DNA from: Verrucomicrobiia bacterium
GTDB lineage: Bacteria > Chloroflexota > Dormibacteria > Aeolococcales > Bog-877
Length of the DNA stretch: 64,000 bases
Assembly (NCBI GenBank): GCA_035532155.1
Contig: DATKRN010000049.1
Coordinates: 7,102 to 71,101, forward strand
Direction: 5' to 3'
Under the pieces are notes generated by a model. It made no database searches. It saw only the letters and a program-made list of their open reading frames with translations, and was not told the DNA's origin. This document shows, one piece after another, positions 2,684 through 59,340 of the stretch. Positions within the stretch are counted from its first letter, which is position 1. Each line of letters starts with the position of its first letter. The translations under genes were made by a program, and so were the position numbers.

Positions 2684-3655
<972 letters not shown>

Positions 3656-3740: not shown

Positions 3741-4052
3741 TCAGAGGCGCTCGACGCGATCGAGGCCAAGGACGAACAAGGTGGCGCGGCCAACCTCCAC
3801 CTCCACCGCGGCGGGCGCCGCCTCCGTCGGCGGCGACGGCTCGGGGACGCTCTCATGGCGAGAGCGTCCCGCGCTGCGCACGGTGGCGACCACGGCGTCG
3901 ACCTCGAGGTCGTCCACCGCGATCAGCAGGACCACGTTGCGCTGCTGCAGGAATCCGCCCTCGCTGGCGAGCTTGGTGACCCCGAATCCGCGCGCGGCGA
4001 GCGTCTCGACCGCACGCACCGCGTCGTGCTCGTGCACCACCGCGAGCACCAT
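3741..4052 (-). CDS. darA: DarA / YaaQ-like PII-fold cyclic-di-AMP receptor protein (DUF970)
   Basis: MVLAVVHEHDAVRAVETLAARGFGVTKLASEGGFLQQRNVVLLIAVDD...VEVEVGRATLFVLGLD aligns closely with B. subtilis DarA (MKLIVAVVQDQD...[26 protein letters not shown]...VEVEVGGATVFVL). It sits directly downstream of tmk, as in Bacillus. The start was moved to the internal Met at 4052. Confidence 0.75.
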   Translation of the reverse strand: MVLAVVHEHDAVRAVETLAARGFGVTKLASEGGFLQQRNVVLLIAVDDLEVDAVVATVRSAGRSRHESVPEPSPPTEAAPAAVEVEVGRATLFVLGLDRVERL

Positions 4053-27600: not shown

Positions 27601-29213
27601 TCGGCGTCACGGACCGCGCTCAAGGGGGTGCCCAGGACGCGGACCTGGTGGCGCTGCAGAACTCCCGCCTCCTCCAGCTGCACCGCCAAGTTGAGCGCGG
27701 TCTGGCCGCCGAGGCTGCAGAGCAGGCCGTGGGGGCGCTCCCGGGCGATCACCGCGGCACAGCTGGCGACCGTCAGCGGCTCCAGATAGACTCGGTCGGC
27801 GACCCCGTCATCGGTCATGATCGTGGCGGGGTTGCTGTTGACGAGAACGACCCGCACCCCCTCCTCCCGGAGCGCCCGGCAGGCCTGGGTGCCGGCGTAA
27901 TCGAACTCGGCGGCCTGGCCGATCACGATCGGACCGCTGCCCAACACCAGCACCGTCCCCGGGGCGGGGGCGGCCCGGTCGGCGCGCGCCCCGGTGGTGG
28001 TGGTGGGCGGGGCCGGCGCGGACGCAAGCGGCAGCGTGCGCAGCGCCAGCGCGCCGGTCCCGCCCCGGTGCGCCCGGCACCAGCCGACGAACTCGTCGAA
28101 GATCTCCTGCCGGTCCTGGGGGCCGGGCGATCCCTCAGGGTGATACTGCACCGCCACCACCGGGCGGCCCGGATGGCGCAGGCCCTCTACCGAGCCGTCG
28201 TTGAGGTTGCGCTCGGCGACGAACCACCCGCTGCCGGCGGCCAGGCTGTCGCCATCGACTTGGAACTCGTGGTTCTGCGCGGTGATGAAGACACGCCCGG
28301 TGCGCAGGTCGCGCACCGGATGGTTGCCGCCGTGGTGGCCGAAGGCGAGCCGGCTGGTGGTGGCGCCGATGGCACGACCCACCAGCTGGTGACCGAGGCA
28401 GATCGCCAGCACCGGCACGCGGTCGAGCAGCGCGCGGGTCAGCGCCACCTGGTCCGGCAGCGCCGCGGGATCCCCCGGTCCGTTGCTGAGCACGACCCCG
28501 GCGGGACGCAGCCGTTCGATCTCCTCCAGGCTGGCCCGGGCGGGAAGCACCACCACCTCGGCGCCGCGGCTCACCAACGATCGCAGCGTCCCCCGCTTGA
28601 CCCCGAGATCGAGCACCACCACCCGGGGGCGAGGGCCGCCCGGGGGCGGGGACGCGAGGCCCGCGGCGAGCGCGGGGTGGAGCCCCTCGTCGGCTCGGTA
28701 CGGCTCCGAGCAGGTCACGCCGCCGACCAGCTGCTGCTCGGAGACCGTGGGGAGGCGCCGGCACTGCGCCACCCAGCGGTCGGGGCCTCCCACCGTTCCC
28801 GCCACCAGCAGGCCGCGCAGCGTGCCGGTCTCGCGCAGGTGCCGGGTGAGTGCGCGGGTGTCGACCTCGGCCAGGCCGGGCACCCCCTGCGCCGTCAGCC
28901 ACGCATCGAAGGTGGCCTCCGCCTGCCAGTGGGGCGCCGTCTCGCTGCAGCGGGCCACGATCACGGCCCGGCACTGGGCGCGGGACGACTCGGAGTCGAC
29001 CGCCGCGGTGCCGACATTGCCGATGAGGGGATAGGTGAAGGCCACCACCTGGCCCGCATAGGACGGGTCGGTGCAGACCTCCTGGTACCCCGTCATGCAG
29101 GTGTTGAAGACGACCTCGCCATGGGGGGGGTCGCCTCCCGGCGCGGCCGCCTGGCCGATCCAGCGGCCGCCGAAGACGGCACCGCTTTCCAGAACCAGGG
29201 CGCCCTCAGCCAC
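24678..29213 (-). CDS. carAB: Carbamoyl-phosphate synthase. The small (glutaminase, CarA) and large (CarB) subunits are encoded as one continuous reading frame, an apparent CarA-CarB fusion.
   Basis: CarA part: ALVLESGAVFGGRWIG..., catalytic LAICLGHQL, VQYHPEGSPGP. A roughly 40-aa Pro/Thr/Ala-rich linker follows (CRAHRGGTGALALRTLPLASAPAPPTTTTGARADRAAPAPG). CarB part: VLVLGSGPIVIGQAAEFDYAGTQACRALREEG..., about 1090 aa with two ATP-grasp halves and an MGS-like C-terminus. No stop codon occurs in any frame across 27961..28080. The putative GTG start at 29213 overlaps the pyrC stop. Confidence 0.8.
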   Translation of the reverse strand: MAEGALVLESGAVFGGRWIGQAAAPGGDPPHGEVVFNTCMTGYQEVCTDPSYAGQVVAFTYPLIGNVGTAAVDSESSRAQCRAVIVARCSETAPHWQAEATFDAWLTAQGVPGLAEVDTRALTRHLRETGTLRGLLVAGTVGGPDRWVAQCRRLPTVSEQQLVGGVTCSEPYRADEGLHPALAAGLASPPPGGPRPRVVVLDLGVKRGTLRSLVSRGAEVVVLPARASLEEIERLRPAGVVLSNGPGDPAALPDQVALTRALLDRVPVLAICLGHQLVGRAIGATTSRLAFGHHGGNHPVRDLRTGRVFITAQNHEFQVDGDSLAAGSGWFVAERNLNDGSVEGLRHPGRPVVAVQYHPEGSPGPQDRQEIFDEFVGWCRAHRGGTGALALRTLPLASAPAPPTTTTGARADRAAPAPGTVLVLGSGPIVIGQAAEFDYAGTQACRALREEGVRVVLVNSNPATIMTDDGVADRVYLEPLTVASCAAVIARERPHGLLCSLGGQTALNLAVQLEEAGVLQRHQVRVLGTPLSAVRDAEDRARFKRRMEELGEPVPPSCTVRSWEEAEAFAATTGLPLVVRPAFTLGGTGGGLARTPADYRAIVGRGLAASPIGQVLVEQALVGWRELEYEVMRDGDDTCLVVCNMENLDPMGVHTGDSLVVAPSQTLTDKEHQQLRSAALRIIRGLGIEGGCNVQFALHPRGHAYFVIEVNPRVSRSSALASKATGYPIARVAAKIAVGRRLHEIENRVTGRTTAAFEPALDYCVVKVPRWPFDKFPDGDRTLGTQMKSTGEVMAIGRSFPAAMAKALRSLEQPTPPPAADPVTEAALAVPTDQRIFLVLAALRSGMSPRRVADATGYAPWFCDRLFELVAAERAVAAALAPADPEAVLVPAAARVLRQAKQAGLDDGTIGRLAGHAPDQVAEWRRTSGIEVTYKCVDTCAAEFAAATPYFYSSFEDEDEQAAGAGGSVVVLGSGPIRIGQGIEFDCCSVQAAAALRQAGVPTVLVNSNPETVSTDFDSSNRLYFEPLDQESVAAVCRVERPRGVAVQFGGQTAVNLAGPLEARGLPLLGAPVAAIDVAEDRGQFDRLLESLGIPRPAGAATGDVAGALAIARRVGYPVLVRPSYVLGGRAMEVVHDDAGLRRHLGIALAAARGPARDPGGRPEVLVDKYLLGLEVEVDAICDGVTVVIPAILEHIERAGVHSGDSMAVVPPQRLGPQLVDKIVETTRRLAIGSGARGLVNVQYVIHRGRVMVLELNPRASRTVPFLSKVTGVPMVELATRVLLGASLTELGWRDGLCPAPPLVAVKAPVFSMRKLDQVDSVLGPEMKSTGEAIGIGPELEVALEKAFTAAFGELPLSGGALVSIADADKAELLPVAARLAELGFRCYATPNTAQALREAGVSVTSVHKLGAGTPSVVDVIESGRVALVINTISGIVSDELGPDGAPRRRRPVRDGFRIRQAAVQRGIPCLTSLDTAAALVAAIARHAEGRAIEVATLAEYRAGVGAASRR

Positions 29214-30585
29214 GGCGGGGCGCCGTGGCTGAGGCGGGGTCTCGGGCCGGCTCCCCCGGACCGGTCCCCGACTCCGTGCCCGGGGGCGGCGACCAGCGGT
29301 GGACCGGGCGCCCCCCGCGCAGGGTCGCCAGCACCCGACCCCCGAGCGCCGCGGTCCAGAACGGGGTGTTGCGACCACCGGACCTCCAGGCCTGGGGCTC
29401 GGCGGCGGGCGACCAGACGCCGGTCGGGTCGAACCAGACACAGTCGGCGGGTGCGCCCGGACGAAGGCTGGGACACGGAAGCCCCGCCGCCTCGCCCAGC
29501 ACCCGCCAGGGCCCGACCGTCAGCGCGGCCACCAGGCGCGGCAGCGCCCGGGCGGCGTCGGGGAGCGCCAAGAGCACGCCCAGCGCCGTCTCCAGGCCGC
29601 TGAACCCGGCGGACGGTCGCGCGCCCGACTCCGCCGGCGACGGCTCGTGCGGAGCATGGTCGGTGGCGACAGCATCCACGGTTCCGTCCAGCAGCGCCGC
29701 CCAGAGCGCGCCGCGGTCGGCGGCGCCCCGCAGGGGCGGGTTGCAGCGAGCGGCGCCGCCCGCTGGGGAGGCCGGCCCGGCCGGGCTCGTCAGCGCGAGG
29801 TGGTGGGGGGTGACCTCGGCGGTCACGCCCAGCCCGGCCCGGCGCGCCGCCCGGATCACCGGGAGCACGGCGGCGGTGGAGCAGTGCTGCAGGTGCAGCC
29901 GCGCCCCGGGGGTCGCGGCGAGCGTGGCGAGGGCGGTGGTGACCGCGGCGAGCTCCGCCTCCGGCGGTCGGCGCGGCCAGTCGCTGGGACCGCCGGGATC
30001 CCCTAGGTTGGCGGCGGCCAGGACCGCCTCGTCCTCGGGATGGATGGCGACCACCCGCTGACAGCGGATGGCGCGACGCAGCAGCTCGGCGAGCACCGCC
30101 GGCGCCATCGCGTTGCGGCCGTCGTCGGAGAAGCCGACCGCCCCGGCGTCGGCCATCGCCTCGACCTCGACCGGCTCACGCCCGGCGAGCCCCCGGGTGC
30201 AGGCGGCGAACTGGCGCACGGTGACGCTCCCCGCGAGCGCGTAGTGGGTGCCGAGGTCAGCGAGCCGGCGCGGCTGGTCCAGGGGCGGGTCGGTGTTGGC
30301 CATCGCGCAGACAGTGGCGAACCCGCCCCGCGCGGCCGCGGCGGTGCCGCTGGCGACCGTCTCCGTGTGGGACGGGCCGGGGGTGCGCAAATGGGCGTGC
30401 AGATCGATGAAGGCGGGCGCGAGGACGCTGCCCTGGTGGTGCCAGACCTCGCAGTCGGCGGGCGCCGCCAGGGACGGGCCGACTGCCGCGATCCGCCCGT
30501 CCACGATGAGGCAGTCGGTGCGGGCCAGATCGGAGCTGGAGGCAGGGTCGATCAGGCGGACCGCCCGCAGCAGGATCGGCCTCAT
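29206..30585 (-). CDS. pyrC: Dihydroorotase
   Basis: FIDLHAHLRTPG...metal-binding motifs, DHAPH near the C-terminus. Start MRPILLRAVRLIDPAS. Confidence 0.85.
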   Translation of the reverse strand: MRPILLRAVRLIDPASSSDLARTDCLIVDGRIAAVGPSLAAPADCEVWHHQGSVLAPAFIDLHAHLRTPGPSHTETVASGTAAAARGGFATVCAMANTDPPLDQPRRLADLGTHYALAGSVTVRQFAACTRGLAGREPVEVEAMADAGAVGFSDDGRNAMAPAVLAELLRRAIRCQRVVAIHPEDEAVLAAANLGDPGGPSDWPRRPPEAELAAVTTALATLAATPGARLHLQHCSTAAVLPVIRAARRAGLGVTAEVTPHHLALTSPAGPASPAGGAARCNPPLRGAADRGALWAALLDGTVDAVATDHAPHEPSPAESGARPSAGFSGLETALGVLLALPDAARALPRLVAALTVGPWRVLGEAAGLPCPSLRPGAPADCVWFDPTGVWSPAAEPQAWRSGGRNTPFWTAALGGRVLATLRGGRPVHRWSPPPGTESGTGPGEPARDPASATAPRRG

Positions 30586-35176: not shown

Positions 35177-36539
35177 CTACTCCAGCAGTCGGAGCGCCAG
35201 CCGGCCCAGCGGGCCCCGGGCCCCACCACGGTCGTCGGCTGCCTGGAGCGCCCGCTGGGTGGCCCCGAGCACCATCGCCCGCAACGGCTCGGGCGGCAGC
35301 GGGGTGGGACGCCGGGTCACCAGCGGCAGCCGGACCCGCTCGGTGTCGCGGTCCAGCAGCAGGTCGGCACCCACGCGCCCCATCAGAGCCGACGGCGCCA
35401 CCCCGTGCCCGCTGGAGCCGACCGCGTAGGCGAGCCGCCTCCCCCGCAGCCAGCCCGCGATCGGCAGACAGCTGACGGTGGCCCCCACCGGGCCGCCCCA
35501 GCTTTGGCGCAGGCGCACATCGGCGAGCTGGGGGACGGTCTGCCGGACGCTCTGCTCCAGCCGGCCGAACACGGCGGGGTCGCGGTCGCGCGCGGGGTCC
35601 GGTCCGATCGCCGAGATCGGGGCGTCGCGCCCGCCCCAGAGGATCCGGCCGTCGGGCGTGGGGCGGTGGACGGGGGGCATCACCCGTCGGTCCTCGATCC
35701 CCATGCCCCCAGCCCAGCCGAGCCGCTCCCACTGCGCGGGCGTGAGCGGGTCGGTGAGCGTGATCGACGCACAGACCGTGAAGAGGACCCGCCGCAGCCG
35801 GGGGATGGCGTGGGCGTAGGCATTGGTCGCGAATCAGCCCGCGGGCGGCCGGGACGACGCCCCGCGGGGTCAGCGCCACCACGCCCTCAGGTCCCACCCG
35901 CACCTGCTCGACCGGGGAGCAATCGTGCACCGCCACGCCCCGGCGGTCAGCCGCGTCCGCCAGCCCGCGCACCAGGGCTGCCGGGTCCAGCAGCAGCGCC
36001 GCCTGCTCGACGTGGCCACCGCGGACCCCCGCCGCCGCCACCAGCTCCGGGCAGGCGGCCGCGGAGAGGGGGCGAAAGTGGTCGAGACCGAGTCGCTCGG
36101 CCGCCCGCAGGTCCTAGAGGATGCGGACGTCCTGCTCGGGCCCATTGGAGACGGTGAGCAGGCCGGGACGCGTCAGTTCAGCGGCGAGCCCCTCGGCGAG
36201 GCAGAACGCTTCGATCTCGGCCAGGGTCTCCACCATCTGGAGGGGGACCGCCTGCGCCGGTGCGGCCCCGAGCTTGCGAGCCAGATCGTGCAGGTTGCGG
36301 GCCATCATGGTCATGGCGAAGCCGCCATTGCAACCGCTGGCGCCGAACCCCACCGTGCTCTGCTCCAGCACGATCACCCGGCAGCCGGGGTCGGCCTCGA
36401 TCAGGCGGATGGCGGACCACAGCCCGGTGAGTCCGCCGCCGACGATCACCACGTCGCAGCGCCGGTCCCCCTCGAGCGCCGGCCGCAGGGGCGGGCGGGC
36501 GCGATCCAGCCACCAGCTGGGTCCCGGCCGGGCCGGCAC
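35177..36539 (-). pseudogene. FAD-dependent oxidoreductase (DAO family, glycine/D-amino-acid oxidase-like), inactivated by an in-frame TAG and at least one frameshift
   Basis: The N-terminus has the dinucleotide-binding motif DVVIVGGGLTGLWSAIRL and ends at TAG 36114..36116. The same frame continues with ...AAAGVRGGHVEQAALLLDPAALVRGLADAADRRGVAVHDCSPV...VVPAARGL. A TGA at 35834..35836 interrupts the downstream frame. The C-terminal third (FATNAYAHAIPRLRRV...GSSGHGVAPS...) is in a third frame. Confidence 0.7.
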
Positions 36540-37752: not shown

Positions 37753-38985
37753 TCAGCTGGCCCCGAGCTGGTCCCGCAGGTCGCGGACCAGCTGCGCCGC
37801 GTGCGGCAGCAGCGCGCCGGCGGGGTCGAGACACGGCCCCTCCAGCACCACCCGGGCCAGCTCGTGGCCGGGCCGGGCCCGACCGCGGACGATGAGCCCG
37901 ACCTCGCCGGGCCGGGGCCCGTCGATCGCCAGAGGAGCCGCCCGCTCCCATCCACCCGCCGCCGACAGGCGTCCGGTGCCGCTGGCCAGGCCGGGGCGCA
38001 CCGTCTGGGTCCCGAGGTTGTGGAGGATGAGCTGCGACCAGTGGCACTCCAGCCGCGACGGCAGCGCCGGATCCCCCGCTCCCACGAACACCCCCAGGTG
38101 GCGGGCGAGCAGGGAGGGCTCGCCGCGGTCGCGGGCCGACAGGTTCCAGAGCGGCACGGAGGCGACCAGGCGCGGGTTCACTTCGATGCAGAAGACGGTG
38201 TCATCCGCCGCCACCACCAGGTCGGCGCCGAAGATGCCGCGGTGGCCCTCGCGCTGGAGCCAGGCGGCGGCCCGCGCCGCCACCGACAGGACCGCCGCCT
38301 CGCCCCGGATCGGGGCGCCGAAGTCGTTGCCGCAGGAGCCCAGCGGGTAGGGTGTGCACTCGGCCAGCCCGGTGAGCTGGCGACAGGGCACCCCCAGGGC
38401 GACCGCGCCGTCGCCCACCACCCCGGTCACCGTCACCGGGTCGCCGCGGATCCAGCTGCTGACCCGGCAGCTGCGACCGGCGTAGGTGGCCAGCAGGGCG
38501 GTGAGGTCCTGCTCGGTGTCGGCTCGGCGGGTGTGGCGACCGCTGTAGCCGCTGGCGAGCTGGACCACCCACGGCCCCCGGAGGCGCAGGGCCTGCTCCG
38601 TCAGGGCGGGGGCGGCGACCCCTGTGACCGCCGGGGGGATGGGCAGCCACGCGCCCGGCGCGGTGCGGGTGAAGTGCACCTTGTTCTCCAGCCGCCGGGC
38701 GATCGCCGCGCCCGCGTTGGCGAGAGGCACTCCCACCTGGCGGGCGCACTCGGCGATCCGCATCGACGGCTTCCAGACCACGAGCTGGCTGGCGCTCGCG
38801 GCCAGCCGGCGGCGGACGTCCTCACGCTCCAGCAGGGCCAGCGCTGAGATCGCGAGCGGAGGCCCCGCCTGGTCGACGCGGCCGGGCGGGTCGCCGACGA
38901 TCCCGCACGCGTCGGCGCAGAGCACCGCGAGCTGGCTGCCCAGGGCGGGGACGGGGTCGGTCCCCACGTAGACCGGACCCATCAT
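37753..38985 (-). CDS. ATP-grasp domain protein with an about 100-aa N-terminal extension
   Basis: ATP-grasp core WVVQLASGYSGRHTRRADTEQDL...GVVGDGAVALGVPCRQL...IFGADLVVAADDTVFCIEVNPRL. It matches neither RimK/LysX nor Ddl exactly. 410 aa. Confidence 0.65.
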   Translation of the reverse strand: MMGPVYVGTDPVPALGSQLAVLCADACGIVGDPPGRVDQAGPPLAISALALLEREDVRRRLAASASQLVVWKPSMRIAECARQVGVPLANAGAAIARRLENKVHFTRTAPGAWLPIPPAVTGVAAPALTEQALRLRGPWVVQLASGYSGRHTRRADTEQDLTALLATYAGRSCRVSSWIRGDPVTVTGVVGDGAVALGVPCRQLTGLAECTPYPLGSCGNDFGAPIRGEAAVLSVAARAAAWLQREGHRGIFGADLVVAADDTVFCIEVNPRLVASVPLWNLSARDRGEPSLLARHLGVFVGAGDPALPSRLECHWSQLILHNLGTQTVRPGLASGTGRLSAAGGWERAAPLAIDGPRPGEVGLIVRGRARPGHELARVVLEGPCLDPAGALLPHAAQLVRDLRDQLGAS

Positions 38986-39983
38986 CGTGGAGAGAGCCCC
39001 ATCTGGCCCAGCTGGGCATCCAGCTCGGCCTCGGTCTCCACCCAGGTGAGGCCGTCGATCCGCGCCGGATCGGGGGCGGGCGCCCGGTCGAGCTGGGCCA
39101 GCTCGCCGGTGAGCAGCGCCACCACGCGCCGGCCCGCGAGATCGGGCGCTGCGCAGCCGATCGCGGTGAGAACGGCCACCCCCTCCCAGGAGGTGCCCAC
39201 CCCGAAGCCGGCGGCGAGGTCTTGGACCTCGCCCATCCGGGCCCGGTCCACCTGCCAGGCCCGGCCCCCGCTGGCGAAGACCGCCCGCCGCACCTCACCG
39301 GAGCGGCGGCTGCGACCCACCCCCAGCTCCCCGACTCCGCGCGCCGCGGGTTCCGCCGTGACCACATGGAGGGCGGGGGCGGGCACGGCTCCGGCGGCGA
39401 ATCCCTGCGCGATCCCGACCGCGGTGGCCCCGCTGCTCTGGTAGACGAAGACGGCGTCCGGCGGTCGCTCCGGCCCGAGCGCCGCCACGAGCTCAGCGGC
39501 GATGCCACGGTAGGCGATGGGCGCCAGCGGATGGACCGAGGGTCGCAGGTCCTCGCAGCCGAACACCTGGACCGCCCGGCGCAGCAGGGCGATCGGCGTC
39601 GGAGTCACGAGCAGCGTCCCCGGGAAGGCCGCCAGCGCCCTCAGCTTGACCCCAGGGGTCCGGGGCGAGACCAGCACCAGCACCGGGACGTCGGCGGCGC
39701 GGGCGTACGCGGCCGCGGCGATGGCGGCGTTGCCCGACGAGGAGAGGGCGCCCGCACGTCCGCTCCGCCGCAGCCCGGCGGATTGGAGGGAGAGCGCCCG
39801 CGCCTTGTGGCTGCCGGTGGGGCTCACGTCCTCGCGCTTCAGCCAGAGGTCGGGGACGCCCAGCGCCGCCCCCAGCCGAGGAGCCGCGACCACCGGGGTG
39901 TGCCCCTCGCCGAGCGACACCGGCGCCAGCCCGGCTAGACTCGGCCCGAAGAGTGCCCGGTGGTCCCACTGGCCAGAGCCGAC
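38982..39983 (-). CDS. PLP-dependent fold-type II enzyme (threonine synthase / cysteine synthase-like, PALP family)
   Basis: HTPVVAAPRLGAALGVPDLWLKREDVSPTGSHKARALSLQ (PLP-lysine motif), SSGNAAIAAAAYA, and a Gly-rich loop SSGATAVGIAQGF. The upstream part of the 440-aa ORF-track entry is junk and would overlap the lysW-like gene. The start was set near 39983. Confidence 0.6.
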   Translation of the reverse strand, partial: VGSGQWDHRALFGPSLAGLAPVSLGEGHTPVVAAPRLGAALGVPDLWLKREDVSPTGSHKARALSLQSAGLRRSGRAGALSSSGNAAIAAAAYARAADVPVLVLVSPRTPGVKLRALAAFPGTLLVTPTPIALLRRAVQVFGCEDLRPSVHPLAPIAYRGIAAELVAALGPERPPDAVFVYQSSGATAVGIAQGFAAGAVPAPALHVVTAEPAARGVGELGVGRSRRSGEVRRAVFASGGRAWQVDRARMGEVQDLAAGFGVGTSWEGVAVLTAIGCAAPDLAGRRVVALLTGELAQLDRAPAPDPARIDGLTWVETEAELDAQLGQMGLSPR

Positions 39984-40022
39984 CCGGGCCGGCTGGACGC
40001 CCGAGCTCACGGGAGTGCCCCG

Positions 40023-40193
40023 ATGCCGTCGCCCCCGACCCCGGTCGCCTGCCCTGACTGCGGGGTGGCGGTGGCGGTGCCCGGCGATTCCGAGGTGGGC
40101 GAGGTGGTGGAGTGCCCCGGCTGCGGGGCCCCCTTGGAGGTGGTGGCCCTGACGCCGCTCACCCTGGTGCCCTTCGACGAGGAGGAGAAGTAG
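40023..40193 (+). CDS. LysW-like zinc-ribbon protein, an alpha-aminoadipate/LysW amino-group-carrier-protein family homolog. 56 aa, ending in ...FDEEEK.
   Basis: MPSPPTPVACPDCGVAVAVPGDSEVGEVVECPGCGAPLEVVALTPLTLVPFDEEEK aligns position by position with Thermus LysW ([50 protein letters not shown]). Both have two CxxCG knuckles, GExV, CGAxLEVVxLxPLxLxP and an acidic tail. The internal ATG at 40023 was used. It is on the opposite strand to all its neighbours. Confidence 0.6.
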   Translation: MPSPPTPVACPDCGVAVAVPGDSEVGEVVECPGCGAPLEVVALTPLTLVPFDEEEK

Positions 40194-41721
40194 CCGCGGG
40201 GACAATCGCCCGGACCGCGGCCCGGAAGCCCCGTCCCCCGGGGTCGGATCCGTAGAAGGCGTGGAACGCTCCCGGGCAGGCCGGCGAGAACAGGACGGCC
40301 TCACCGGGACGGGCCGCCTCGGCCGCGAGCGCGACCGCCTGGTCGAGGCCTGTGACCCGGTGCACCCGCGCGGCGCTCCCGGCGGCCTGGAGCGCCCCCG
40401 CGATCCGCTCGGAGCCCGCCCCGGGAAGCAGGACGATCGCGCGGACGGCGCTGGGGACCAGCACCACCAGCTCGTCCCAGGCCAGCTGCTTGTCGTCGCC
40501 CCCGCAGATGAGCACGCAGCGGCGCCCGAGAGCGAGCACCGCCGCCACCGTGGACTGGGGCGTGGTCGAGTTCAGGTCGTCGACCCAGTCCACCCCGCCG
40601 GCCTGCCAGACCAGCTGGATGCGGTGGCGCAGCGGCTGAAAGTCGGCCAGCGCGTCCGCCGCCGTGTCCGCCAGTCGGCCCATCGCCGCCACCGTCGCCA
40701 CCGCCGCTCGGACGTTCTGCCGGTTGTGCGCGCCCAGCAGTCCGCTGGGCCCCGGCCCGACCCTCTCCGCCCACACCCCGTGGCGGCGGACGACCACCTC
40801 TTCGTCGATCTCGAAGGCCCCGTCGAAGCCCTCGAGCCCGGTCTCGCTGGCGGCGAAGCGCCACTCCTCGGCCCCACGGGCGGCCGGGCACCGCGCCCGG
40901 CTGATGGGGTCATCCGCGTTGCGCACGGCCACCCGGTTGCCCGGGAGTGAGAAGAGGCGCCGCTTGGCGTCGACGTAGCCGTCCAGGCCGTTGTGCTCGT
41001 CGAGATGGTTGGGGGTGAGGTTGGTCAGGCAGGCAACCTCGGGGGCGCTCGCCATCTGGAGTAGCTGGCGGTTGCTGATCTCCAGCACCAGCACATCGGT
41101 GGCCGCGCCCGATGCCACCTCGACCAGACACGGGGTCTGGTGACGGTCGTTGCCCGCCGACCGGACCACCCCCGAGCGGGGCCCGGCGGACAGCAGCCGG
41201 GCCACCAGGGCGGCGGTGGTCGACTTGCCGTGGCTGCCGCTCACCCCGACCACAGGACCCCTGGCGCAGTCGAGGTACGCCTGCGCCAGGGAGTAGAACG
41301 GACGGCCCGCGGCGCGCAGCGCCTCCAGCGGCCGATTGCGCGGGTTGAGGAACCATGCCTGGGTGGGCACCACCACCGCCGCCTCGTCGAGGCCGGCGAG
41401 ATAGCGGTCGCCGAGGCGAAGGTCCCGCAGCCCAGTGGCGAGCGCCTCCCACCGCTGCGCCCGGGTCCGGGGAGCGAGCCCGGCGTGCGCGCGCGCGAAA
41501 GCGGTCGCGACCTCATCCGCGGGGGCCAGGTCGTGGCCCACCAGCTGCGAGCAACCGCAGGCCAGGCAGAAGCGCGCCATCTCGGCCCCCTCGAGGCTCG
41601 CCACCCCGACGATGTGCAGGGGCCGGTCACGATAGGGAGCCAGGGCGCGCGGCAAGGCCGCGGCCAGCCGGCCCGCCTCGGACGGGGCCGGCGGGAGTGC
41701 AAAGGGCAGCATCGCCCGCAT
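40159..41721 (-). CDS. MurD-like Mur ligase family protein with a divergent N-terminal domain. It is outside any dcw cluster.
   Basis: Central ATPase domain GVSGSHGKSTTAALVARLL...VLEISNRQL...NLTPNHLDEH. C-terminal domain DDLNSTTPQST...LFSPACPGAFHAFYGSDPGGRGF, which parallels E. coli MurD NDSKATN...[22 protein letters not shown]. The N-terminal Rossmann motif is degenerate (HIVGVASLEGAEMARFCLACG). Confidence 0.75.
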   Translation of the reverse strand: MRAMLPFALPPAPSEAGRLAAALPRALAPYRDRPLHIVGVASLEGAEMARFCLACGCSQLVGHDLAPADEVATAFARAHAGLAPRTRAQRWEALATGLRDLRLGDRYLAGLDEAAVVVPTQAWFLNPRNRPLEALRAAGRPFYSLAQAYLDCARGPVVGVSGSHGKSTTAALVARLLSAGPRSGVVRSAGNDRHQTPCLVEVASGAATDVLVLEISNRQLLQMASAPEVACLTNLTPNHLDEHNGLDGYVDAKRRLFSLPGNRVAVRNADDPISRARCPAARGAEEWRFAASETGLEGFDGAFEIDEEVVVRRHGVWAERVGPGPSGLLGAHNRQNVRAAVATVAAMGRLADTAADALADFQPLRHRIQLVWQAGGVDWVDDLNSTTPQSTVAAVLALGRRCVLICGGDDKQLAWDELVVLVPSAVRAIVLLPGAGSERIAGALQAAGSAARVHRVTGLDQAVALAAEAARPGEAVLFSPACPGAFHAFYGSDPGGRGFRAAVRAIVPAATSPPRRRAPG

Positions 41722-41755
41722 CGTACGGCGGCCGGGGCGACCCGCCGCTCACCGG

Positions 41756-42640
41756 TCAGGCCGCTGCCGTGGAGGTGGGGCGGCCGATCCGGCGCCAGCC
41801 CAGCACCTGGTAGCGCGCCTCGAAGGTCTCCCGCGGCTCGACCCGCACCCGCCCGGTCTCGCTGCAGGCGTGGACCACCGAGCCGGCGTCGAGGGCGAGC
41901 GCGACATGGCTGAGCCGCCGCCGTCGCGAGATCGCGCCCGCCAGGTCGCCGGCGGCGACGTTGGGGCCGGCCACTCGCTCCCCGCACCGGCGCTGGCCCC
42001 GACTGTTGCGGGGGAGGCAGAGTCCGACCCCGGCGAAGGCGCGCCAGACCAGACCGGAGCAGTCGTACCCGGCTCCCCCGGTCGCGCCCCACACATAGGG
42101 ACGGCCCCGCTGGGCGAGCACAAAGGCACAGAGCGCGTCCCACGACCAGATCCCCGCCGATCTCCCCTCCCTCACGGGGGCGAGCCCGAGATCGGCGGGG
42201 CTGTGGGGGACGCCGAGCCTAAAGGACGCCCCCCGGTCGACCCAGCCGAGGGCGGCCCCGGGGGCGCGCACCAGGCAGGCCCCACCCCGCACCGCCAGCA
42301 GGAGCGCGGGCGGGTCGCCCGCCAGCAGCTCGGTGGCGCGCTCCCCGCCCCGACCGTCCCCGCCGGGGTGGTCGCGCCACACGTCGAGGGGTGCTCCCAG
42401 GGGCCAGAGGCCGCGCCGGGGACGCCGCTCCGCGAGCACGGTCAGGCGGACGTCGATCGCGGGCCACCGGGATCCGAGCCGCGCCCGCACCAGGTCCGCC
42501 TGGGCGCTCACGCCCACCACCCCGCTCACCCCCCCGGGCTGGACCCGGACGTCGAAGATCGGGGTGGGATAACGCTCCGCGACCGCCAGCCGGACCGCGC
42601 GCAGCTCCGCCGCCACCGCGGCGCGGTCAGCGGCGTCCAT
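41756..42640 (-). CDS. NlpC/P60 (C40) family peptidase with an uncharacterised N-terminal domain
   Basis: Catalytic Cys context RGRPYVWGATGGAGYDCSGLVWRAFAGVGLCLPRNSRGQ and a downstream His (LSHVALALDAGSVVHA). The start was set to the Met overlapping the stop of the upstream gene. Confidence 0.7.
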   Translation of the reverse strand: MDAADRAAVAAELRAVRLAVAERYPTPIFDVRVQPGGVSGVVGVSAQADLVRARLGSRWPAIDVRLTVLAERRPRRGLWPLGAPLDVWRDHPGGDGRGGERATELLAGDPPALLLAVRGGACLVRAPGAALGWVDRGASFRLGVPHSPADLGLAPVREGRSAGIWSWDALCAFVLAQRGRPYVWGATGGAGYDCSGLVWRAFAGVGLCLPRNSRGQRRCGERVAGPNVAAGDLAGAISRRRRLSHVALALDAGSVVHACSETGRVRVEPRETFEARYQVLGWRRIGRPTSTAAA

Positions 42641-43521
42641 CACGCGCGGCGGCGCCACCAGGGCCGGGTCCCGGCGGACGGGACGGCCGGGCCGCGCCGC
42701 TCCCGGGGTCCAGGGGCCAGCTCGACCCCGTCGGTCACGAGCACGATCGGGGAGAGCGGGCTCTCGGCCTCCCGAAACGCTCGCGCGACCGCGCGCGTGA
42801 AGCGGTCGGCTCCGGCCTGCGGGCCGAGCGCGGCCAGGACCAGCCCCCGGTCGGGCGCCGCCAGCCGGCCGTGACCGCCGCCGCGCCGGGCCAGGATGCG
42901 GCGGAGCTCAGGAAGCATCAGCAAGCTGGAGGCGAAGAGCCGGTCCTCTCCGAACTGCCAGGGTCCGGTCCCCTGCGTCCGCTCCAGGGCCGAGAGCCAG
43001 CCCGCGAAGCGGGCGGCGGTGTTGTGGTCGGCGCGGGTGCGCAGCTCGTCGGCCCCCAGCCCGACGCCTTCGGCCTCGGGGACCGAGACGCCTCGGAGCG
43101 CCTCGCCCGGCAGCTCTTCGGCGACGAAGGCGACCAGGGACGGGGCGAGCGGGTGGCAGAGCAGCTCGCGGGCGCGCTCGAAGGCCACCACGCTCCTACT
43201 GGTACGCACGCACCAGAGCAGCGCGCCGGGGTCGGGTCCCGTCCCGCCCGCCGAGGCGGGCGCCCGCTGCAGCCGCGCCGCCGCCGCCCCCACGAAGCGG
43301 GCGATCTCGGCGGGGGCGGAGGCGCCAGGCTGATGGGCGTCGACGTACAAGGTGGTGAGCGCCAGTGAGACCGCCCCCGAGGACGGGCCCGTGCGGTGGG
43401 CGCGCACCGCGAACGCGTCGGGGTCGGGCTGGAAGCTCCAGTCCGGATAGCGAGCACGCAGCTGGGTGGCGAGCCGGGTGGCGAACGCGGCACGGTCCGC
43501 GAACGCGATCCCGGTGTCCAC
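42640..43521 (-). CDS. Hypothetical protein
   Basis: 293-aa ORF. It is tightly packed between the VWA protein and the NlpC/P60 gene (overlapping stops and starts). No family recognised. Confidence 0.45.
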   Translation of the reverse strand: MDTGIAFADRAAFATRLATQLRARYPDWSFQPDPDAFAVRAHRTGPSSGAVSLALTTLYVDAHQPGASAPAEIARFVGAAAARLQRAPASAGGTGPDPGALLWCVRTSRSVVAFERARELLCHPLAPSLVAFVAEELPGEALRGVSVPEAEGVGLGADELRTRADHNTAARFAGWLSALERTQGTGPWQFGEDRLFASSLLMLPELRRILARRGGGHGRLAAPDRGLVLAALGPQAGADRFTRAVARAFREAESPLSPIVLVTDGVELAPGPRERRGPAVPSAGTRPWWRRRA

Positions 43522-43541: not shown

Positions 43542-45539
43542 TCAGGCGGCCCGACCACGACCGGCGACATAGTCGAGCAGGACGTAGTCGCCGAGGTGGT
43601 CGGGGCTGATGAAGAAGGCGCGGCCCCGGTTCTGCCTTGTCATCTGCCGGACGAAGCGCACCAGCTGGGGGTTGCTCTCCAGCATGAAGGTGTTGATCAC
43701 GATCCCGTCGCGGGTGCAGTCCCGCACCGCCGCCAGGGTGCGCTGGAACGTCTCGGGAAGGGGAGGATAGTAGAACACCGCCTGCGTCCCCTCCATGTGG
43801 GCGGTGGGCTCCCCGTCACTGACGATGATCACCTGCCGGTTGCTGCTGGGGTGGCGGGCCAGCAGGCGGCGCGCCAGCATCAGGCCGTGCTGCAGGTTGG
43901 TGCCATAGACGTACTCGTTGTAGGAGAGCTGGGCCAAGCTCCCCGGCGCGATCTCGCGCGCGTAGTCGGAGAACCCCACCACGTAGAGCTGATCGCGAGG
44001 GTACTGGGTGCGGATCAGCGCGTCCAGCGCGAGCGCCACCTTCTTGGCGGCGTAGAAGTAGCCCCGCAGCGGCATGCTCCGACTCATGTCGAGCATCAGC
44101 ACCGTGCTGGAGCGGGTCGTGGGCTCGGCGGCGTGGACCAGGAAGTCCGAGGGGTCCAGCCGGAGCGGCACCCCGGCGCCGGCTCGGCGCACGCTGGCGA
44201 GCAGGGTCTCGCCCAGGTGGACATCGAAGGGCTCGCCGAAGCGATAGGGTCGGGTGTCGTCCTGGCGCTCGCTGCCGACCCCGAGGCCCCGGGTGCCGTG
44301 CTGTCCGAAGCGATCGGCGGCGAGCCGCCGGAAGATGTCCGCCAGCGCCTGCTGCCCGATCCGCCGCACCCCTCGCGGGGTGAGCTCGAGCCCGGCCTCG
44401 CCGCGGTGCAGGTACCCCGAACGCTCCAGCTGACGGGTGAGCGCCTGGACCCGGTCGAGCGCGCGGACGGCGTCATCGCCGAGCACGGCTCGGAGCCGCT
44501 CGCGGGTCGACTCGCCCACCGGTTCGCCGCGGTAGACGCCCTGGAGCGCGCGCTCCAGCTCCTCCAGCCCCTCCAGCTCCCCCATCAACTGGAGCGCATC
44601 CCCGAACGGGAGCGACTCGTCGCCAAAGAAGCGGTAGCGCGGGGAGTCCTGCTCTCCGCCTCCGAGCTGGCGCAGCAGTCGGCCCAGCTCGCTCAGCGCG
44701 GCCTGGAGCCCGGGATCGTCGAGGCCGGCGGCGAGCAGCCCCTCCAGCTCGCGCCGCGCCTCCGGCGCGAGCGACCGCAGCAGGGACCCCATCTGCCGCA
44801 TCTGGGCCTGGAGGGTGGCCAGGAACTCCTCGAAACTGGCGGGGTGGTTGGGGAAGTACTCCCCGAAGCGCTGAAGGAACGCCGCGTACTCGGGGTCCTC
44901 CCCGGCGGCGTGGGCGCTCAGCATCCGGCTCAGCGCCTCCACCATCTGGCGCAGCCGACTGCGCTCGTCCGGCCCCATCGACCGCATCGCCTCCCCCACC
45001 TCGCGTAGGTGCGCGCCCAGCATCTGCCGGCGCAGGTCGTCGACCAGCTCCGAGAACGCCCGCGCCGCGGCGGGATCGAGGAATTCGTAGGCCTGCAGGG
45101 CCCGGATCGCCGAGCCCGGCTCGGGCGGGAGCGCATCCAGCTGCTGCGCCCTGCGCTCCGCCATGCGCGCGCGGATCCGGTCGGCGGCAGGGTCGGACGG
45201 GGGCGCCGCACTGGCGCGGCGTCCCGCCTCGATGCCGCGACGCTCCTGCTGCACGATGCGATCGATCCGCTCGCGGATATCGCTGAAGAGCGCCTCCAGA
45301 TTGAAGCGTTCGAGCTCGCGCTGACGGCGCCGGCGGAGCTGGTCGAGCAGGCCCTCCAGACCGGGAACGCGTCGCCCCCGCGGGCCGCGGAGCCCCTGCC
45401 CCAGCAGCCGGCGCAGCGCCGAGTCGAGGTCCCAGCCGTGGAAGACATCCTCGGCGAGGCGCGCGAACTCGTCCTCGGCGTCGACGCCGACCTCCTCCTG
45501 GGTGCCGTCCCAGCTGGAGTAGCGGTGCCGCACCGCCAT
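43542..45539 (-). CDS. VWA (von Willebrand factor A) domain protein, CoxE/DUF444-like, partner of the upstream AAA ATPase
   Basis: 665 aa with a long helical N-terminal region. The C-terminal VWA has a MIDAS (VLMLDMSRSM...GTNLQHGL...IIVSDGEPTA). Confidence 0.75.
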   Translation of the reverse strand: MAVRHRYSSWDGTQEEVGVDAEDEFARLAEDVFHGWDLDSALRRLLGQGLRGPRGRRVPGLEGLLDQLRRRRQRELERFNLEALFSDIRERIDRIVQQERRGIEAGRRASAAPPSDPAADRIRARMAERRAQQLDALPPEPGSAIRALQAYEFLDPAAARAFSELVDDLRRQMLGAHLREVGEAMRSMGPDERSRLRQMVEALSRMLSAHAAGEDPEYAAFLQRFGEYFPNHPASFEEFLATLQAQMRQMGSLLRSLAPEARRELEGLLAAGLDDPGLQAALSELGRLLRQLGGGEQDSPRYRFFGDESLPFGDALQLMGELEGLEELERALQGVYRGEPVGESTRERLRAVLGDDAVRALDRVQALTRQLERSGYLHRGEAGLELTPRGVRRIGQQALADIFRRLAADRFGQHGTRGLGVGSERQDDTRPYRFGEPFDVHLGETLLASVRRAGAGVPLRLDPSDFLVHAAEPTTRSSTVLMLDMSRSMPLRGYFYAAKKVALALDALIRTQYPRDQLYVVGFSDYAREIAPGSLAQLSYNEYVYGTNLQHGLMLARRLLARHPSSNRQVIIVSDGEPTAHMEGTQAVFYYPPLPETFQRTLAAVRDCTRDGIVINTFMLESNPQLVRFVRQMTRQNRGRAFFISPDHLGDYVLLDYVAGRGRAA

Positions 45540-45542
45540 GGC

Positions 45543-46985
45543 TCAGCCCCCGTAGACGGTGGTGCCGTCGACCTGGGTCTTGTTCAGCCGCTTACTGACG
45601 TGGAGGCCCTCCAGGACAAACTCCAGTGCCGCCGCCACGGTGGCCGGGGTGACCGGCTCCTCCAGCCCGGCCAGGACGCGCTCCATCCCCCCCAGCTCGC
45701 GGCCGGCGGCCGTGTAACGGTCCAGCTCGACCGCGTCTCCCACCTCCAGGCGAAGACCCTGCTCGAAGCGCGCGACCAGCGCCGTGAACTCCTGCAGCGC
45801 GAAGCGGCGGCGGAAGACGTTGCCGCAGGCGCTCCGGAGGAGCTTGGGCAGCAGCATGTGGTCGTCGCTCTCCTCGAATGCCTCCAGCTCCAGCTTGCCC
45901 CAGGTGGACGCGGCGAGCGCGGCGAGGTCGGAGATGCGCGGTACCGCCTCCACCTCCTGGAGGCGGATCGCACGCCGGACCGCCGAGGCGCACAGGCTCT
46001 CGTAATTGGCGATGGACAGCCGCACCGACACCCCGGAGCGCTGGTTCACCTGGGGGCTGCGGCGGGCCAGGTGGGTCACCTCGGCGACCAACTCGCGCAT
46101 GTAGGCGGGGACGTGCAGCCGCACCGGGAGGTCGTCGAAGGAGGCCGCCTCGGCCTCGATGATCGCCACCTCCTCCTCGACCCGACGGGGATAGTGAGTG
46201 CGCACCTGAGCCCCGAAGCGGTCCTTGAGGGGGGTGATGATGCGCCCGCGATTGGTGTAGTCCTCGGGATTGGCAGTGGCGATCACCACCACGTCGAGCG
46301 GGAGCCGCACCCGGAACCCGCGGATCTGGACGTCGCGCTCCTCCATGCAGGTGAGCAGGCCGACCTGGATCCTCTCGGCCAGGTCGGGCAGCTCGTTGAT
46401 GGCGAAGAGACCGCGATTCACCCGCGGCAGCAGTCCGTAGTGGATCGTCAGCTCATCGGAGAGGTAGCGGCCCTCGGCGACGCGGATGGGGTCGACCTCA
46501 CCGATGAGGTCCGCGATCGACGTGTCAGGGGTGGCCAGCTTCTCCCCGAAGCGCTGGTCCGGGCCGATCCACGCGATCGGGGTCGCGTCGCCCTGCTCCG
46601 CCACCCGGTCGCGACCATATCGGCTGATCGGCTGGTAGGGATGGTCGTTGACCTCGCTGCCGGCGATGATCGGCAGCTGCTCGTCGAGCAGCCCCACCAG
46701 CTGGCGGATCAGCCGCGATTTGGCCTGGCCCCGCTCCCCCAGCAGGATGATGTCCTGGCCGGCGAGGATCGCGTGCTCCACCTGGGGGACGACGGTGTCG
46801 TCGTAGCCCACGATCCCGGGGAAGAGCGGGGCGCCCTGGCGCAGGCGGCGCACCAGATTGTCTCGCAGCTCGGCCCGGACGGTGCGCTGCCGGTACTCGC
46901 TGCCGCGGAGCTCGCCGATGGTGGAGGGCAGGGTCATGGGGGAAGCGAGGGTCGGATCCGAGGGGCGCCAGGCCCGCCCGGTCAT
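45543..46985 (-). CDS. AAA+ ATPase, ChlI/BchI-like (Mg-chelatase-family fold)
   Basis: Walker A ILLGERGQAKSRLIRQL, Walker B/sensor region GLFAINELPDL...VVVIATANPEDYTNRGRIITPLKDRF. The start is uncertain (Met candidates at 46985 and 46940). The ORF-track start at 47045 overlaps the upstream pseudogene. Confidence 0.7.
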   Translation of the reverse strand: MTGRAWRPSDPTLASPMTLPSTIGELRGSEYRQRTVRAELRDNLVRRLRQGAPLFPGIVGYDDTVVPQVEHAILAGQDIILLGERGQAKSRLIRQLVGLLDEQLPIIAGSEVNDHPYQPISRYGRDRVAEQGDATPIAWIGPDQRFGEKLATPDTSIADLIGEVDPIRVAEGRYLSDELTIHYGLLPRVNRGLFAINELPDLAERIQVGLLTCMEERDVQIRGFRVRLPLDVVVIATANPEDYTNRGRIITPLKDRFGAQVRTHYPRRVEEEVAIIEAEAASFDDLPVRLHVPAYMRELVAEVTHLARRSPQVNQRSGVSVRLSIANYESLCASAVRRAIRLQEVEAVPRISDLAALAASTWGKLELEAFEESDDHMLLPKLLRSACGNVFRRRFALQEFTALVARFEQGLRLEVGDAVELDRYTAAGRELGGMERVLAGLEEPVTPATVAAALEFVLEGLHVSKRLNKTQVDGTTVYGG

Positions 46986-47039
46986 GATAGCCGCCGCTAG
47001 CCGCCGCCCTTGTCCGCAATCGGGCCGGCCCGCGGCTCG

Positions 47040-47990
47040 GCCCAAGGTCAGCCCACGGTGCGCAGGCGCGGCAGCCGGCCGGGCAGGATCGCCAGGCGGG
47101 CGGGGAGATCAGCAGGATGACGTCGCGGAATCCCGCCTGCACGAACTCCTCGACGGCGGCCATCGCCCGGCCGGCATCGCCGGAGATCGGGAGCTGGACC
47201 GCCCGGCGGATGCGGCCCGGGTCGCGGCCGATCGCCTCGCGGTGGCGGTCGAGGACCCGAGATAGCTGTCTCAGCTCGGCCGCGACCTCGCCCCGCAGGG
47301 TGCCGCACCGGACGTCGGCATGCTCGGCGACCACGCGCAGGCCGCGGCGCGCACCCAGGCTCCCCAGCCGCCGGGGGCGGGCGCGGGCGCTGCACGGGTT
47401 TGGGGTCGCACCGGGCGCCCTGCAGGCGCCCATGGCGCCCCACATGAGTCGACACCGGCTGGCTCCCCAGCAGCGGGATCAGCCGGAGCGCCTCGTCGAG
47501 GTGCTCGATCGGCTCCCGTAGCGGCGTCAGCAGGAGGCCGTCCAGGGCGTCGACCAGGAGGTCGCCGCCGGCGCCGAGGCCCATGTCGAGACAGCCCTGG
47601 CTGAGATGGTAGACGGTGGCCGCCACCGTGACGAGCCCAGCCGGGTGACGCGGGCAGCGACCGGTGACCCGGGCGCCGATGCGAACCCGGCGGGTCGCCT
47701 GCGCCATGGAACCCAGCGGGGTCCACGCCTCGAGCACGTCGCCGCGGCGCTCGGCCCCAGCGGGACGACGTGGTCGAAGACCCAGCCGCCATCGCAGGCG
47801 ACCTCGTCGGCCAGCGCCCACGCCTCCGGCACGCGGTCGACGGGGGTGTGCTGCTGGGACGGTTTCACGCCGAAGGTGGGGGCGGGCACGGTCTCCTCCG
47901 CGGCGCTGGGCGCGGCCCGACCGGTCGCCCAGAAAGCGCACTGTCCCTGATCGTCAGCATGGCTGCTTGTACGGCGGGAGGTAGGATCGG
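47040..47990 (-). pseudogene. Luciferase-like monooxygenase (LLM) family oxidoreductase, probably F420-dependent, broken into three frames
   Basis: N-terminus TFGVKP...PEAWALADEVACDGGWVFDHVVPLGP is in frame 1 (47527..48000). The middle VRIGARVTGRCPRHPAGLVTVAATVYHLSQGCLDMGLGAGGDLL...LREPIEHLDEALRLI is in frame 2 (47048..47941). The C-terminal part ...RGEVAAELRQLSRVLDRHREAIGRDPGRIRRAVQL...VEEFVQAGFRDVILLI is in frame 3. That implies at least two frameshifts. Confidence 0.55.
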
Positions 47991-59295: not shown

Positions 59296-59340
59296 CGCCT
59301 CCGATTATCGCGATCGGGGGACGGCAGCGCCGCGCTCCCG

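Follow-up and report, generated by a model that had tools for sequence, protein, structure and literature searches.

We found that five neighboring genes in a 64,000-nucleotide stretch of bacterial DNA (GenBank assembly GCA_035532155.1, contig DATKRN010000049.1, positions 7,102 to 71,101; the whole stretch is called the window below) recur as a set in other genomes and center on a 56-aa zinc-ribbon protein related to LysW, the carrier protein of lysine biosynthesis. We refer to the 56-aa protein as the carrier, for its predicted role, and to the five genes as the cassette. The other four genes encode an ATP-grasp amide ligase, a pyridoxal phosphate (PLP) enzyme, a paralogue of the murein ligase MurD, and an NlpC/P60 cysteine peptidase (Table 1). 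An initial annotation, made from the DNA letters, had reported these genes with these domains, and searches of Pfam and NCBIfam bore out both the positions and the domains. The GC content of the window is 75-76% and raw lists of open reading frames (ORFs) are noisy there; genes were taken from codon-position GC and from public gene calls, and the two agreed.

Table 1. The cassette and adjoining features, in coordinates of the window.
Feature	Position	Strand	Remarks
Carrier, 56-aa LysW-like zinc ribbon	40023..40193	+	PF21344 Zn_ribbon_LysW, E 1e-13, 51.1 bits (cut-off 27)
ATP-grasp amide ligase, three-domain, 410 aa	37753..38985	-	PF02655; start overlaps the PALP stop by 4 nt
PLP enzyme, fold-type II, threonine-synthase-like paralogue, 342 aa	38982..40010	-	PF00291, 123 bits; GTG start
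Mur ligase, MurD paralogue, 520 aa	40159..41721	-	Pfam Mur_ligase_M and Mur_ligase_C; TIGR01087 murD, 197.2 bits (cut-off 211.95)
NlpC/P60 cysteine peptidase, 294 aa	41756..42640	-	PF00877, 62.2 bits (cut-off 23)
293-aa protein, family not recognized	42640..43521	-	One base (42640) common to its stop and the NlpC/P60 start; no Pfam or NCBIfam match
Convergent 3'-end overlap of carrier and Mur ligase genes, 35 nt	40159..40193		Read from sequence
Gap between divergent start codons of PLP gene (-) and carrier gene (+), 12 nt	40011..40022		Read from sequence

The carrier gene is on the strand opposite the rest of the operon, nested between the Mur ligase and PLP genes, and GGGAG lies 8 nt 5' of its ATG. 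A dnaJ gene is downstream of the ATP-grasp gene on the minus strand. Read antisense, the end of the carrier (...TLVPFDEEEK) gives the end of the Mur ligase (...TSPPRRRAPG), and the 35-nt overlap is exact in 52 of the 58 loci with the carrier gene on the opposite strand. It is 56 nt in one locus (L093) and 32 nt in a locus from the Candidate Phyla Radiation (CPR; L095). The carrier gene is co-directional with the operon in Anaerolineae and in 'type D' loci. Where the carrier gene is antisense within its own operon, the minus-strand operon transcript must run antisense across the whole gene, and the sense and antisense transcripts would be fully complementary there. We found no sigma-70-like promoter or intrinsic terminator around the carrier gene, a scan that is uninformative at 75% GC. 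A search of eight loci with Rfam at the gathering threshold gave only an unrelated thiamine pyrophosphate riboswitch and a tmRNA.

The carrier is a LysW homologue, as had been predicted. It has two CxxC pairs, is strongly acidic, and has GC by codon position of 0.79/0.56/0.89, which is of the coding type; the four cysteines are conserved across its homologues. In addition to its Pfam match, it matched solved LysW chains from Thermococcus, Thermus and Sulfolobus (5k2m_E, 1.6e-8; 3wwl_A, 8.5e-8; also 3vpb_E), all of them crystallized in complex with their enzymes. Comparison with hidden Markov models (HMMs) of LysW gave a divided answer: the carrier passed the Pfam threshold but fell below both curated LysW cut-offs (34.2 vs 53.2 for TIGR01206, and 45.2 vs 75 for NF041070). 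The alignment to LysW, initially described as residue by residue, held for the zinc ribbon and the LEVxxLxPLTL stretch but ended 1-2 residues short of the carrier C-terminus. Canonical LysW runs ~5 residues beyond the alignment to ...EDWGE, and the carrier ends ...DEEEK. Judged by its sequence, the carrier is LysW-like in fold and is outside the LysW family proper.

Homologues of the carrier are present in ~70 related loci, in some of which the gene is co-directional with the operon. One homologue, 75% identical and in the same gene arrangement, is in another Dormibacterota metagenome-assembled genome (MAG). The public record of the 56-aa protein (P0001) reads 'lysine biosynthesis protein LysW', a name that looks wrong. 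The contig is publicly assigned to Verrucomicrobiae, which looks wrong too; the organism is a Dormibacterota-type MAG. Public taxon labels of carrier relatives include Micrarchaeia and other groups; the credibly labeled close homologues are from Dormibacterota.

The C-terminal tail sets the carrier apart from LysW. It is -EEK in 69 of the 70 loci listed, -DEK in the other (L077), and never -DWGE. More fully, the carrier ORFs of the ~70 loci end ...[FY]x[DEQ]EEK, with DEK the one exception. We also searched 1.84 billion representative proteins exhaustively with HMMER and found 270 carrier relatives at E <= 1e-3. Within the best 150 matches, the carrier family comprises at least 44 clusters at 50% identity, and the 83 short proteins among these matches end in EEK (38), xEK (6) or DWGE (14), among other C-termini. 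The EEK proteins have a median net charge of -10; LysW is also known to be acidic. By these sequence criteria, the -EEK proteins are a distinct, sizeable subfamily of the LysW fold, marked by a terminal lysine. With lysine in place of glutamate, the proven attachment point of LysW (the gamma-carboxylate of the terminal Glu) is absent. The view that the protein works exactly as LysW does was thus not upheld: the terminal Glu is replaced by an invariant Lys, and the curated cut-offs are missed.

Among other LysW-fold proteins (P0209-P0218, P0230, P0240, P0281 and others), some have poly-Asp/Glu, ...EDEDWD or ...EDWGQ tails, and others repeat the zinc ribbon, up to 10 times in the 967 aa of P0215. 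These proteins may be further, unexplored classes of carrier.

The five genes occur together with few exceptions. In a species-level survey, one genome per species was scanned with an alignment of the ATP-grasp enzyme, giving 80 loci, and the six-frame ORFs of these loci were searched with HMMs made from the five cassette proteins. A cassette-type ATP-grasp enzyme was present in 65 of the 80 loci, 44 of which had at least 4.5 kb of upstream DNA. All 44 had the carrier and the Mur ligase, 43 had the PLP enzyme, and 39 had the peptidase. Of the five with no separate peptidase, four had an unusually long ligase ORF, and the two that were checked (L061 and L054) encode a fusion of SH3, NlpC/P60 and Mur ligase domains. 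This single ORF (SH3_16 - NlpC/P60 - Mur) is found in Anaerolineae. At two other loci (L077 and L093), NlpC/P60 is instead joined to the C-terminus of the ATP-grasp enzyme.

The set persists as its proteins diverge. ATP-grasp homologues at both 50% and 35% identity lie within sets of the order NlpC/P60 - Mur ligase - [carrier, opposite strand] - PLP enzyme - ATP-grasp, and the flanking genes differ at the 35%-identity loci. The set is also present in a genome of Candidatus Gottesmanbacteria (CPR; L095), within a run of glycosyltransferase and phosphatase genes; the peptidase and ATP-grasp enzyme are divergent there. By record title, the hosts of the cassette are Dormibacterota, Chloroflexota (Anaerolineae and Caldilineae), some evidently mislabeled high-GC MAGs, and one CPR genome; taxon labels of MAGs are unreliable. 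The neighborhood is therefore conserved in Dormibacterota, Chloroflexota and the CPR despite different flanks. Because of the strict co-occurrence, the two kinds of fusion, and the invariant C-terminus on a carrier fold, a functional five-part module is the only reasonable reading.

Not every relative of a cassette protein belongs to a cassette. ATP-grasp matches from Planctomycetes and Caballeronia (L078-L091) were considered as cassette loci and set aside, since the cassette is not there. We likewise set aside a Mur ligase homologue (P0191) that occurs on many contigs and is part of a different system: at L094 (8001..12662), its gene precedes three genes for M42-family peptidases, and no LysW-like gene was called.

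The Mur ligase has the whole fold and the catalytic residues of MurD. Its AlphaFold2 model is confident (pLDDT 90.9), and Foldseek superposed it at full length on closed MurD with TM scores, normalized to MurD, of 0.83-0.85 (2uag, 4uag, 2jfg, 8dp2). The ligase falls below the murD cut-off (Table 1), and positions 1-92 of that model, the N-domain, are unmatched. It retains the P-loop and the equivalents of E157, H183, K198 (the carbamylated-Lys position), N268/N271, R302, D317, T321 and K348, of which T321 and K348 are contacts of the alpha-carboxylate. In Escherichia coli MurD, the S415/L416/F422 loop ([AST]-S-[FLY]-D-x-[FY] motif) holds the side-chain carboxylate of D-Glu. This loop (S415-L416-D-x-F...F422) is replaced by PGFF, EYF or GFF in all cassette ligases and is present in every true MurD that we aligned, both classical and dcw 'group 2'. 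Loss of the loop for the D-Glu gamma-carboxylate fits a different or tethered amine substrate. From sequence, we consider the ligase a MurD paralogue whose acyl substrate is probably still linked to a nucleotide.

The initial annotation placed this ligase outside any dcw (division and cell wall) cluster, and the same holds at ~70 loci, where no cassette ligase gene was in one. Its closest non-cassette relatives are P0156 and P0152 (36-38% identity), whose genes are flanked by mraY and ftsW in complete dcw clusters; their taxa are others or unknown. They share with the cassette ligase a subtype of N-domain in which HD ends strand 2, ~25 residues are inserted, and there is a PQxW motif. We had considered that the ligase N-domain diverged for binding to the carrier; this idea is weakened, since genuine dcw MurDs have the same N-domain subtype. 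The group-2 dcw MurDs (L092 8001..9491, and the P0152 locus) have no match to the Pfam MurD N-domain, and have Arg at the position of E. coli Lys348. A search for ligase homologues returned no canonical MurD labeled Dormibacterota; that search was word-limited, hence this is no evidence of absence.

The ATP-grasp enzyme (model pLDDT 94.7) is a standard three-domain enzyme that retains the ExNxR motif. The enzyme class originally assigned to it stands; its supposed N-terminal extension is the ordinary pre-ATP-grasp domain. Its structure resembles those of PurD, L-amino-acid ligases and PylC more than that of LysX/ArgX, and it is not LysX/RimK-like. Its structural neighbors include PylC, which acylates the N-epsilon of lysine, BesA, which gamma-glutamylates amino acids, and PGM1, which extends ribosomal peptides. 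The cassette enzyme differs from PylC and BesA in being only 13-17% identical to them, with no significant match to PylC by sequence, and the scores of PurD and PurK are at least as high, so that the substrate class of the ATP-grasp enzyme is not readable from its fold.

The best NCBIfam models for the PLP enzyme are those of threonine synthase, with a score of 66.9 vs a cut-off of 303, and threonine synthases in the PDB matched only at 4e-10. The enzyme has the PLP lysine motif PTGSHK. For its orthologue in Gottesmanbacteria, the next-best solved relatives are PLP-dependent Asp and Ser racemases. The catalytic residues of the peptidase, a Cys in DCSG and two His (SHV and VVH), can be read in its sequence. 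Its N-terminal domain of ~170 aa has no Pfam match and no signal peptide is evident; the predicted location of the peptidase is thus probably the cytoplasm. PDB relatives include the YkfC / DPP-VI type (2evr, 2hbw, 3h41, 3pvq), which are gamma-D-Glu-diamino-acid endopeptidases. An SH3_16 domain was detected in the Anaerolineae fusion at L061; the Pfam search gave none in the peptidase of the window.

The usual partners of LysW are missing from the neighborhood, as had been noted initially. We found no genes for RimK/LysX, amino-acid kinase, semialdehyde dehydrogenase, class-III aminotransferase or M20 proteins within 10 kb on either side of the cassette or among 20 other ORFs of the window that were scanned. 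Similarly, there were no genes for LysX, LysZ, LysY, LysJ or LysK in the annotated neighborhoods of the related loci. These neighborhoods also contained no tRNA-dependent ligase of the PEARL/LanB type, no RRE domain (the recognition element of RiPPs, peptides that the ribosome makes and that are modified after translation), and no leader/core precursor.

Based on these results, we think it somewhat probable that the five genes form a self-contained module around a LysW-type handle, and that an amino-acid or peptide unit is built and altered on or near the terminal lysine, in the cytoplasm. Each of the five parts has recognizable homologues, the catalytic motifs are intact, the genes co-occur strictly and are in places fused, and the tail is invariant. 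In the proposed pathway, the acidic zinc-ribbon protein would present its Glu-Glu-Lys tail as the handle. Amide bonds would be made by the two ATP-dependent ligases, that is, the ATP-grasp enzyme (grouped by structure with L-amino-acid ligases, PylC and BesA) and the MurD paralogue. The threonine-synthase-like PLP enzyme would transform the alpha-amino-acid end that the unit, tethered or incoming, leaves free, and the NlpC/P60 peptidase, whose relatives cleave gamma-glutamyl-diamino-acid bonds, would release the product and free or trim the handle. A peptide resembling the stem of peptidoglycan would be the likeliest destination, because the MurD paralogue has the N-domain type of genuine dcw MurDs. 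We infer covalent loading of the tail from these features, and with it the order of the steps, the bond (at the lysine's epsilon-amine or its alpha-carboxylate), the nature of the product, and whether the handle would be reused or consumed.

Several points weigh against this proposal. Attachment to the tail is deduced, and the function as a carrier is predicted from sequence. The one LysW mechanism that has been proven loads the gamma-carboxylate of a terminal Glu, and a terminal lysine rules it out. The substrate of the Mur ligase might be a small nucleotide, with no part for the carrier. Fold searches narrow the ATP-grasp enzyme down no further than a broad clade to which PurD and PurK also belong. 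The PLP enzyme is distantly threonine-synthase-like, and the phosphate-binding NSxNPxRxEGQK is not conserved in its Gottesmanbacteria orthologue when aligned to 2zsj and 1uim. Lastly, the envelope genes that neighbor the module (see below) are only loosely associated with it.

A more specific form of the proposal, a carrier-dependent branch of murein-precursor synthesis, is doubtful at present and we offer it as a speculation from sequence. The ATP-grasp enzyme would tether a glutamate-like unit, through its side-chain carboxylate, to the epsilon-amine of the carrier lysine. The PLP enzyme would then convert the free alpha-amino-acid end, for example by epimerization to the D form or by beta-substitution. 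The MurD paralogue would acylate the alpha-amine with UDP-MurNAc-L-Ala, and the gamma-glutamyl-specific NlpC/P60 peptidase would release the product. This scheme would account for the lost gamma-carboxylate pocket and would fit the known chemistry of all four enzyme families. If it is correct, the presence of the cassette in Dormibacterota, Chloroflexota and a CPR genome would be in keeping with descent from a common ancestor.

Other explanations of the cassette begin from the same observations. It is conceivable, but unlikely, that the small protein is a single-use precursor like those of RiPPs or peptide-derived cofactors, with the encoded C-terminal Lys or Glu-Lys modified and then cut off by the NlpC/P60 peptidase. 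The reactive-looking residue is indeed gene-encoded and invariant, the dedicated peptidase is always present and often fused to a ligase, and the carrier gene has its own orientation, hence probably its own promoter, which would allow production in excess. However, the globular domain is the one found in LysW, which is a reusable carrier, and two ligases exceed what one residue needs; one of them could recharge a handle. Whole phyla, and a CPR genome, also have the module in housekeeping contexts, and its neighborhoods have none of the radical-SAM or oxidase partners typical of peptide-derived cofactors. Less credible is the possibility that the ligase is the working MurD of the cell, or a variant acting at position 2, and that nothing is built on the small protein, which would serve a cytoplasmic unit for murein-peptide synthesis or recycling only as regulator, pseudo-substrate or assembly factor. 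We would give this little weight. The full-length MurD fold, the N-domain subtype shared with MurDs from dcw clusters, and the recycling of murein peptides by NlpC/P60 relatives of the YkfC / DPP-VI type all speak for it, and we saw no second murD in the window. On the other side, the loop for the D-Glu gamma-carboxylate is lost in all cassette ligases, the score is under the murD cut-off, and the gene was never in a dcw cluster. It is also hard to see why a mere regulator with a LysW fold should end in three invariant residues, and the PLP and ATP-grasp genes are equally invariant. That the ligase could be the organism's sole housekeeping MurD is countered indirectly by the lost loop, the site outside dcw, and the peptidase fusion in Anaerolineae.

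We regard the two remaining explanations as effectively excluded. One is that the protein is an ordinary LysW or ArgW of the alpha-aminoadipate lysine pathway or the arginine pathway. Its Pfam domain, the solved LysW chains that it matches, and its public name all suggest this, yet it falls under both curated cut-offs, its tail is -EEK and not -DWGE, no genes for LysX/Z/Y/J/K are in the annotated neighborhoods, and the ATP-grasp enzyme is structurally far from LysX/ArgX. The other, which has still less to be said for it, is that the ORF is spurious or its adjacency a matter of chance. Long spurious ORFs are common at 75% GC and this ORF is antisense between operon genes. Nevertheless, its codon-position GC is of the coding type, there are co-directional copies, it is present in 44 of 44 loci, and the protein is conserved across phyla, including on a contig of lower GC (L077, 52%) and in the CPR genome.

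Genes next to the cassette vary by lineage. The 293-aa protein (Table 1) is found at this position only in type-A loci of Dormibacterota, and type-B loci have a REG-2-like HAD phosphatase instead. We considered that the 293-aa protein might be a divergent HAD phosphatase and rejected this (hhalign probability 0.2%). We consider its gene to be a lineage-specific accessory whose membership in the module is uncertain. Envelope genes recur beside the module in otherwise unrelated settings, which speaks for the proposed pathway. They include those for family 4 glycosyltransferases (GT4), FemAB-like and GT28-like proteins at some loci, and GT2, GT4, YfhO, PMT_2 and PAP2 proteins elsewhere, with FtsEX and an M23 peptidase downstream. 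In the window, an Amidase_3 gene is ~4 kb from the cassette.

The window also contains two gene pairs of the MoxR-type AAA family, at 43542..47045 (-) and 1463..3922 (-). One pair consists of an Rv0958-like AAA protein and an Rv0959-like VWA protein and adjoins the cassette in Dormibacterota; the other consists of AAA_3 MoxR and DUF58. At the fusion locus L054, a VWA protein is encoded directly before the NlpC-Mur fusion. Farther away, a 1614-aa ORF (24678..29519, -) looks like a single-chain carbamoyl-phosphate synthase (CPSase) with carA and carB fused; its homologue in Dormibacteria (L007) has CPSase small-chain, GATase and large-chain domains in one product. Between dnaJ and a GNAT gene are two adjacent fragments of one DAO-type FAD oxidoreductase (35177..35833 and 36114..36539, both -; 167 and 141 aa in the public calls), probably a disrupted gene or the result of a frameshift. 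A 679-aa radical-SAM protein (57265..59304, -) with a CofH/MqnC C-terminal region looks like a fused FO synthase of the CofG/CofH type (F420 biosynthesis).

To our knowledge, LysW-type carriers have so far been known with one tail chemistry and one enzyme set (LysX/Z/Y/J/K, plus copies in secondary metabolism). Here, the same fold has a different invariant end and a wholly different enzyme set, including a MurD paralogue and a murein-type peptidase. With its public name, the protein would lead metabolic reconstructions of Dormibacterota and Chloroflexota astray. If the protein is indeed a carrier, the cassette would be a new class of carrier-protein pathway and a handle on envelope or amino-acid chemistry in three little-studied and mostly uncultured lineages. 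If the murein scheme is also correct, this would be the first cell-wall nucleotide precursor built on a protein handle, with the LysW fold as a carrier on the carboxyl side and not the amino side. The conserved antisense nesting of the carrier gene in its own operon is an unusual regulatory layout in any case.

We found no account of the cassette in open-access literature on LysW with Mur ligases or ATP-grasp enzymes, on amidoligases and peptide tags, on amino-group carriers, or on peptidoglycan in Dormibacterota. This agrees with the initial view that the five-gene combination is not one of the described carrier systems.

The cassette nevertheless resembles several known systems in part. Like LysW and ArgW of Thermus, Sulfolobus and Thermococcus, the carrier has ~55 aa, a homologous zinc ribbon, a strongly acidic sequence and a C-terminal tail that is acidic and flexible, and the genes around it are for enzymes that make or break amide bonds. 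It differs in that the tail is ~5 residues shorter and ends -EEK in place of -EDWGE, that LysX/ArgX, LysZ, LysY, LysJ and LysK are missing nearby, and that the ATP-grasp enzyme is of another structural group. LysW-type carriers are also used in secondary metabolism, in the amino-group carrier protein (AmCP) systems of Streptomyces. The ligase resembles MurD, including the dcw group-2 proteins P0156 and P0152, in its three-domain fold, its catalytic residues and, for group 2, an N-domain with the ~25-aa insertion. In contrast to MurD, it is encoded outside dcw clusters, its D-Glu loop is replaced, it is fused to NlpC/P60 in Anaerolineae, and the 3' end of its gene overlaps the carrier gene. The peptidase is similar to NlpC/P60 enzymes of the YkfC / DPP-VI type in having a catalytic domain with a Cys and two His, SH3_16 in the Anaerolineae fusion, and no evident signal peptide; it differs in an N-terminal domain without a Pfam match and in its fusions to ligases in some lineages.

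Systems with other folds offer parallels in logic. Cysteine synthesis by CysO-CysM-Mec+, and the homocysteine routes with a sulfur carrier and a threonine-synthase-like enzyme, use beta-grasp carriers with a Gly-Gly thiocarboxylate and adenylation. These systems have a small carrier, a fold-type-II PLP enzyme acting at the carrier C-terminus, and a dedicated releasing protease, all of which are reminiscent of the cassette; the carrier of the cassette instead has a LysW fold and a terminal Lys, and its ligases are of the acyl-phosphate type. In the pathways to pearlins (TglA/TglB), pyrroloquinoline quinone (PqqA) and mycofactocin (the MftA C-terminus), chemistry likewise takes place at the C-terminus of a ribosomal peptide and is followed by proteolytic release. 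The cassette neighborhoods differ in having no PEARL/LanB-like ligase, radical-SAM protein or RRE, and the scaffold is a folded LysW domain. Finally, the tubulin tyrosination cycle combines an acidic ...EE-X end (the ...EEY tail of tubulin) with an ATP-grasp ligase, tubulin tyrosine ligase (TTL), and a papain-/transglutaminase-like cysteine peptidase, vasohibin, and the cassette pairs an acidic ...EE-X end with the same two kinds of enzyme.

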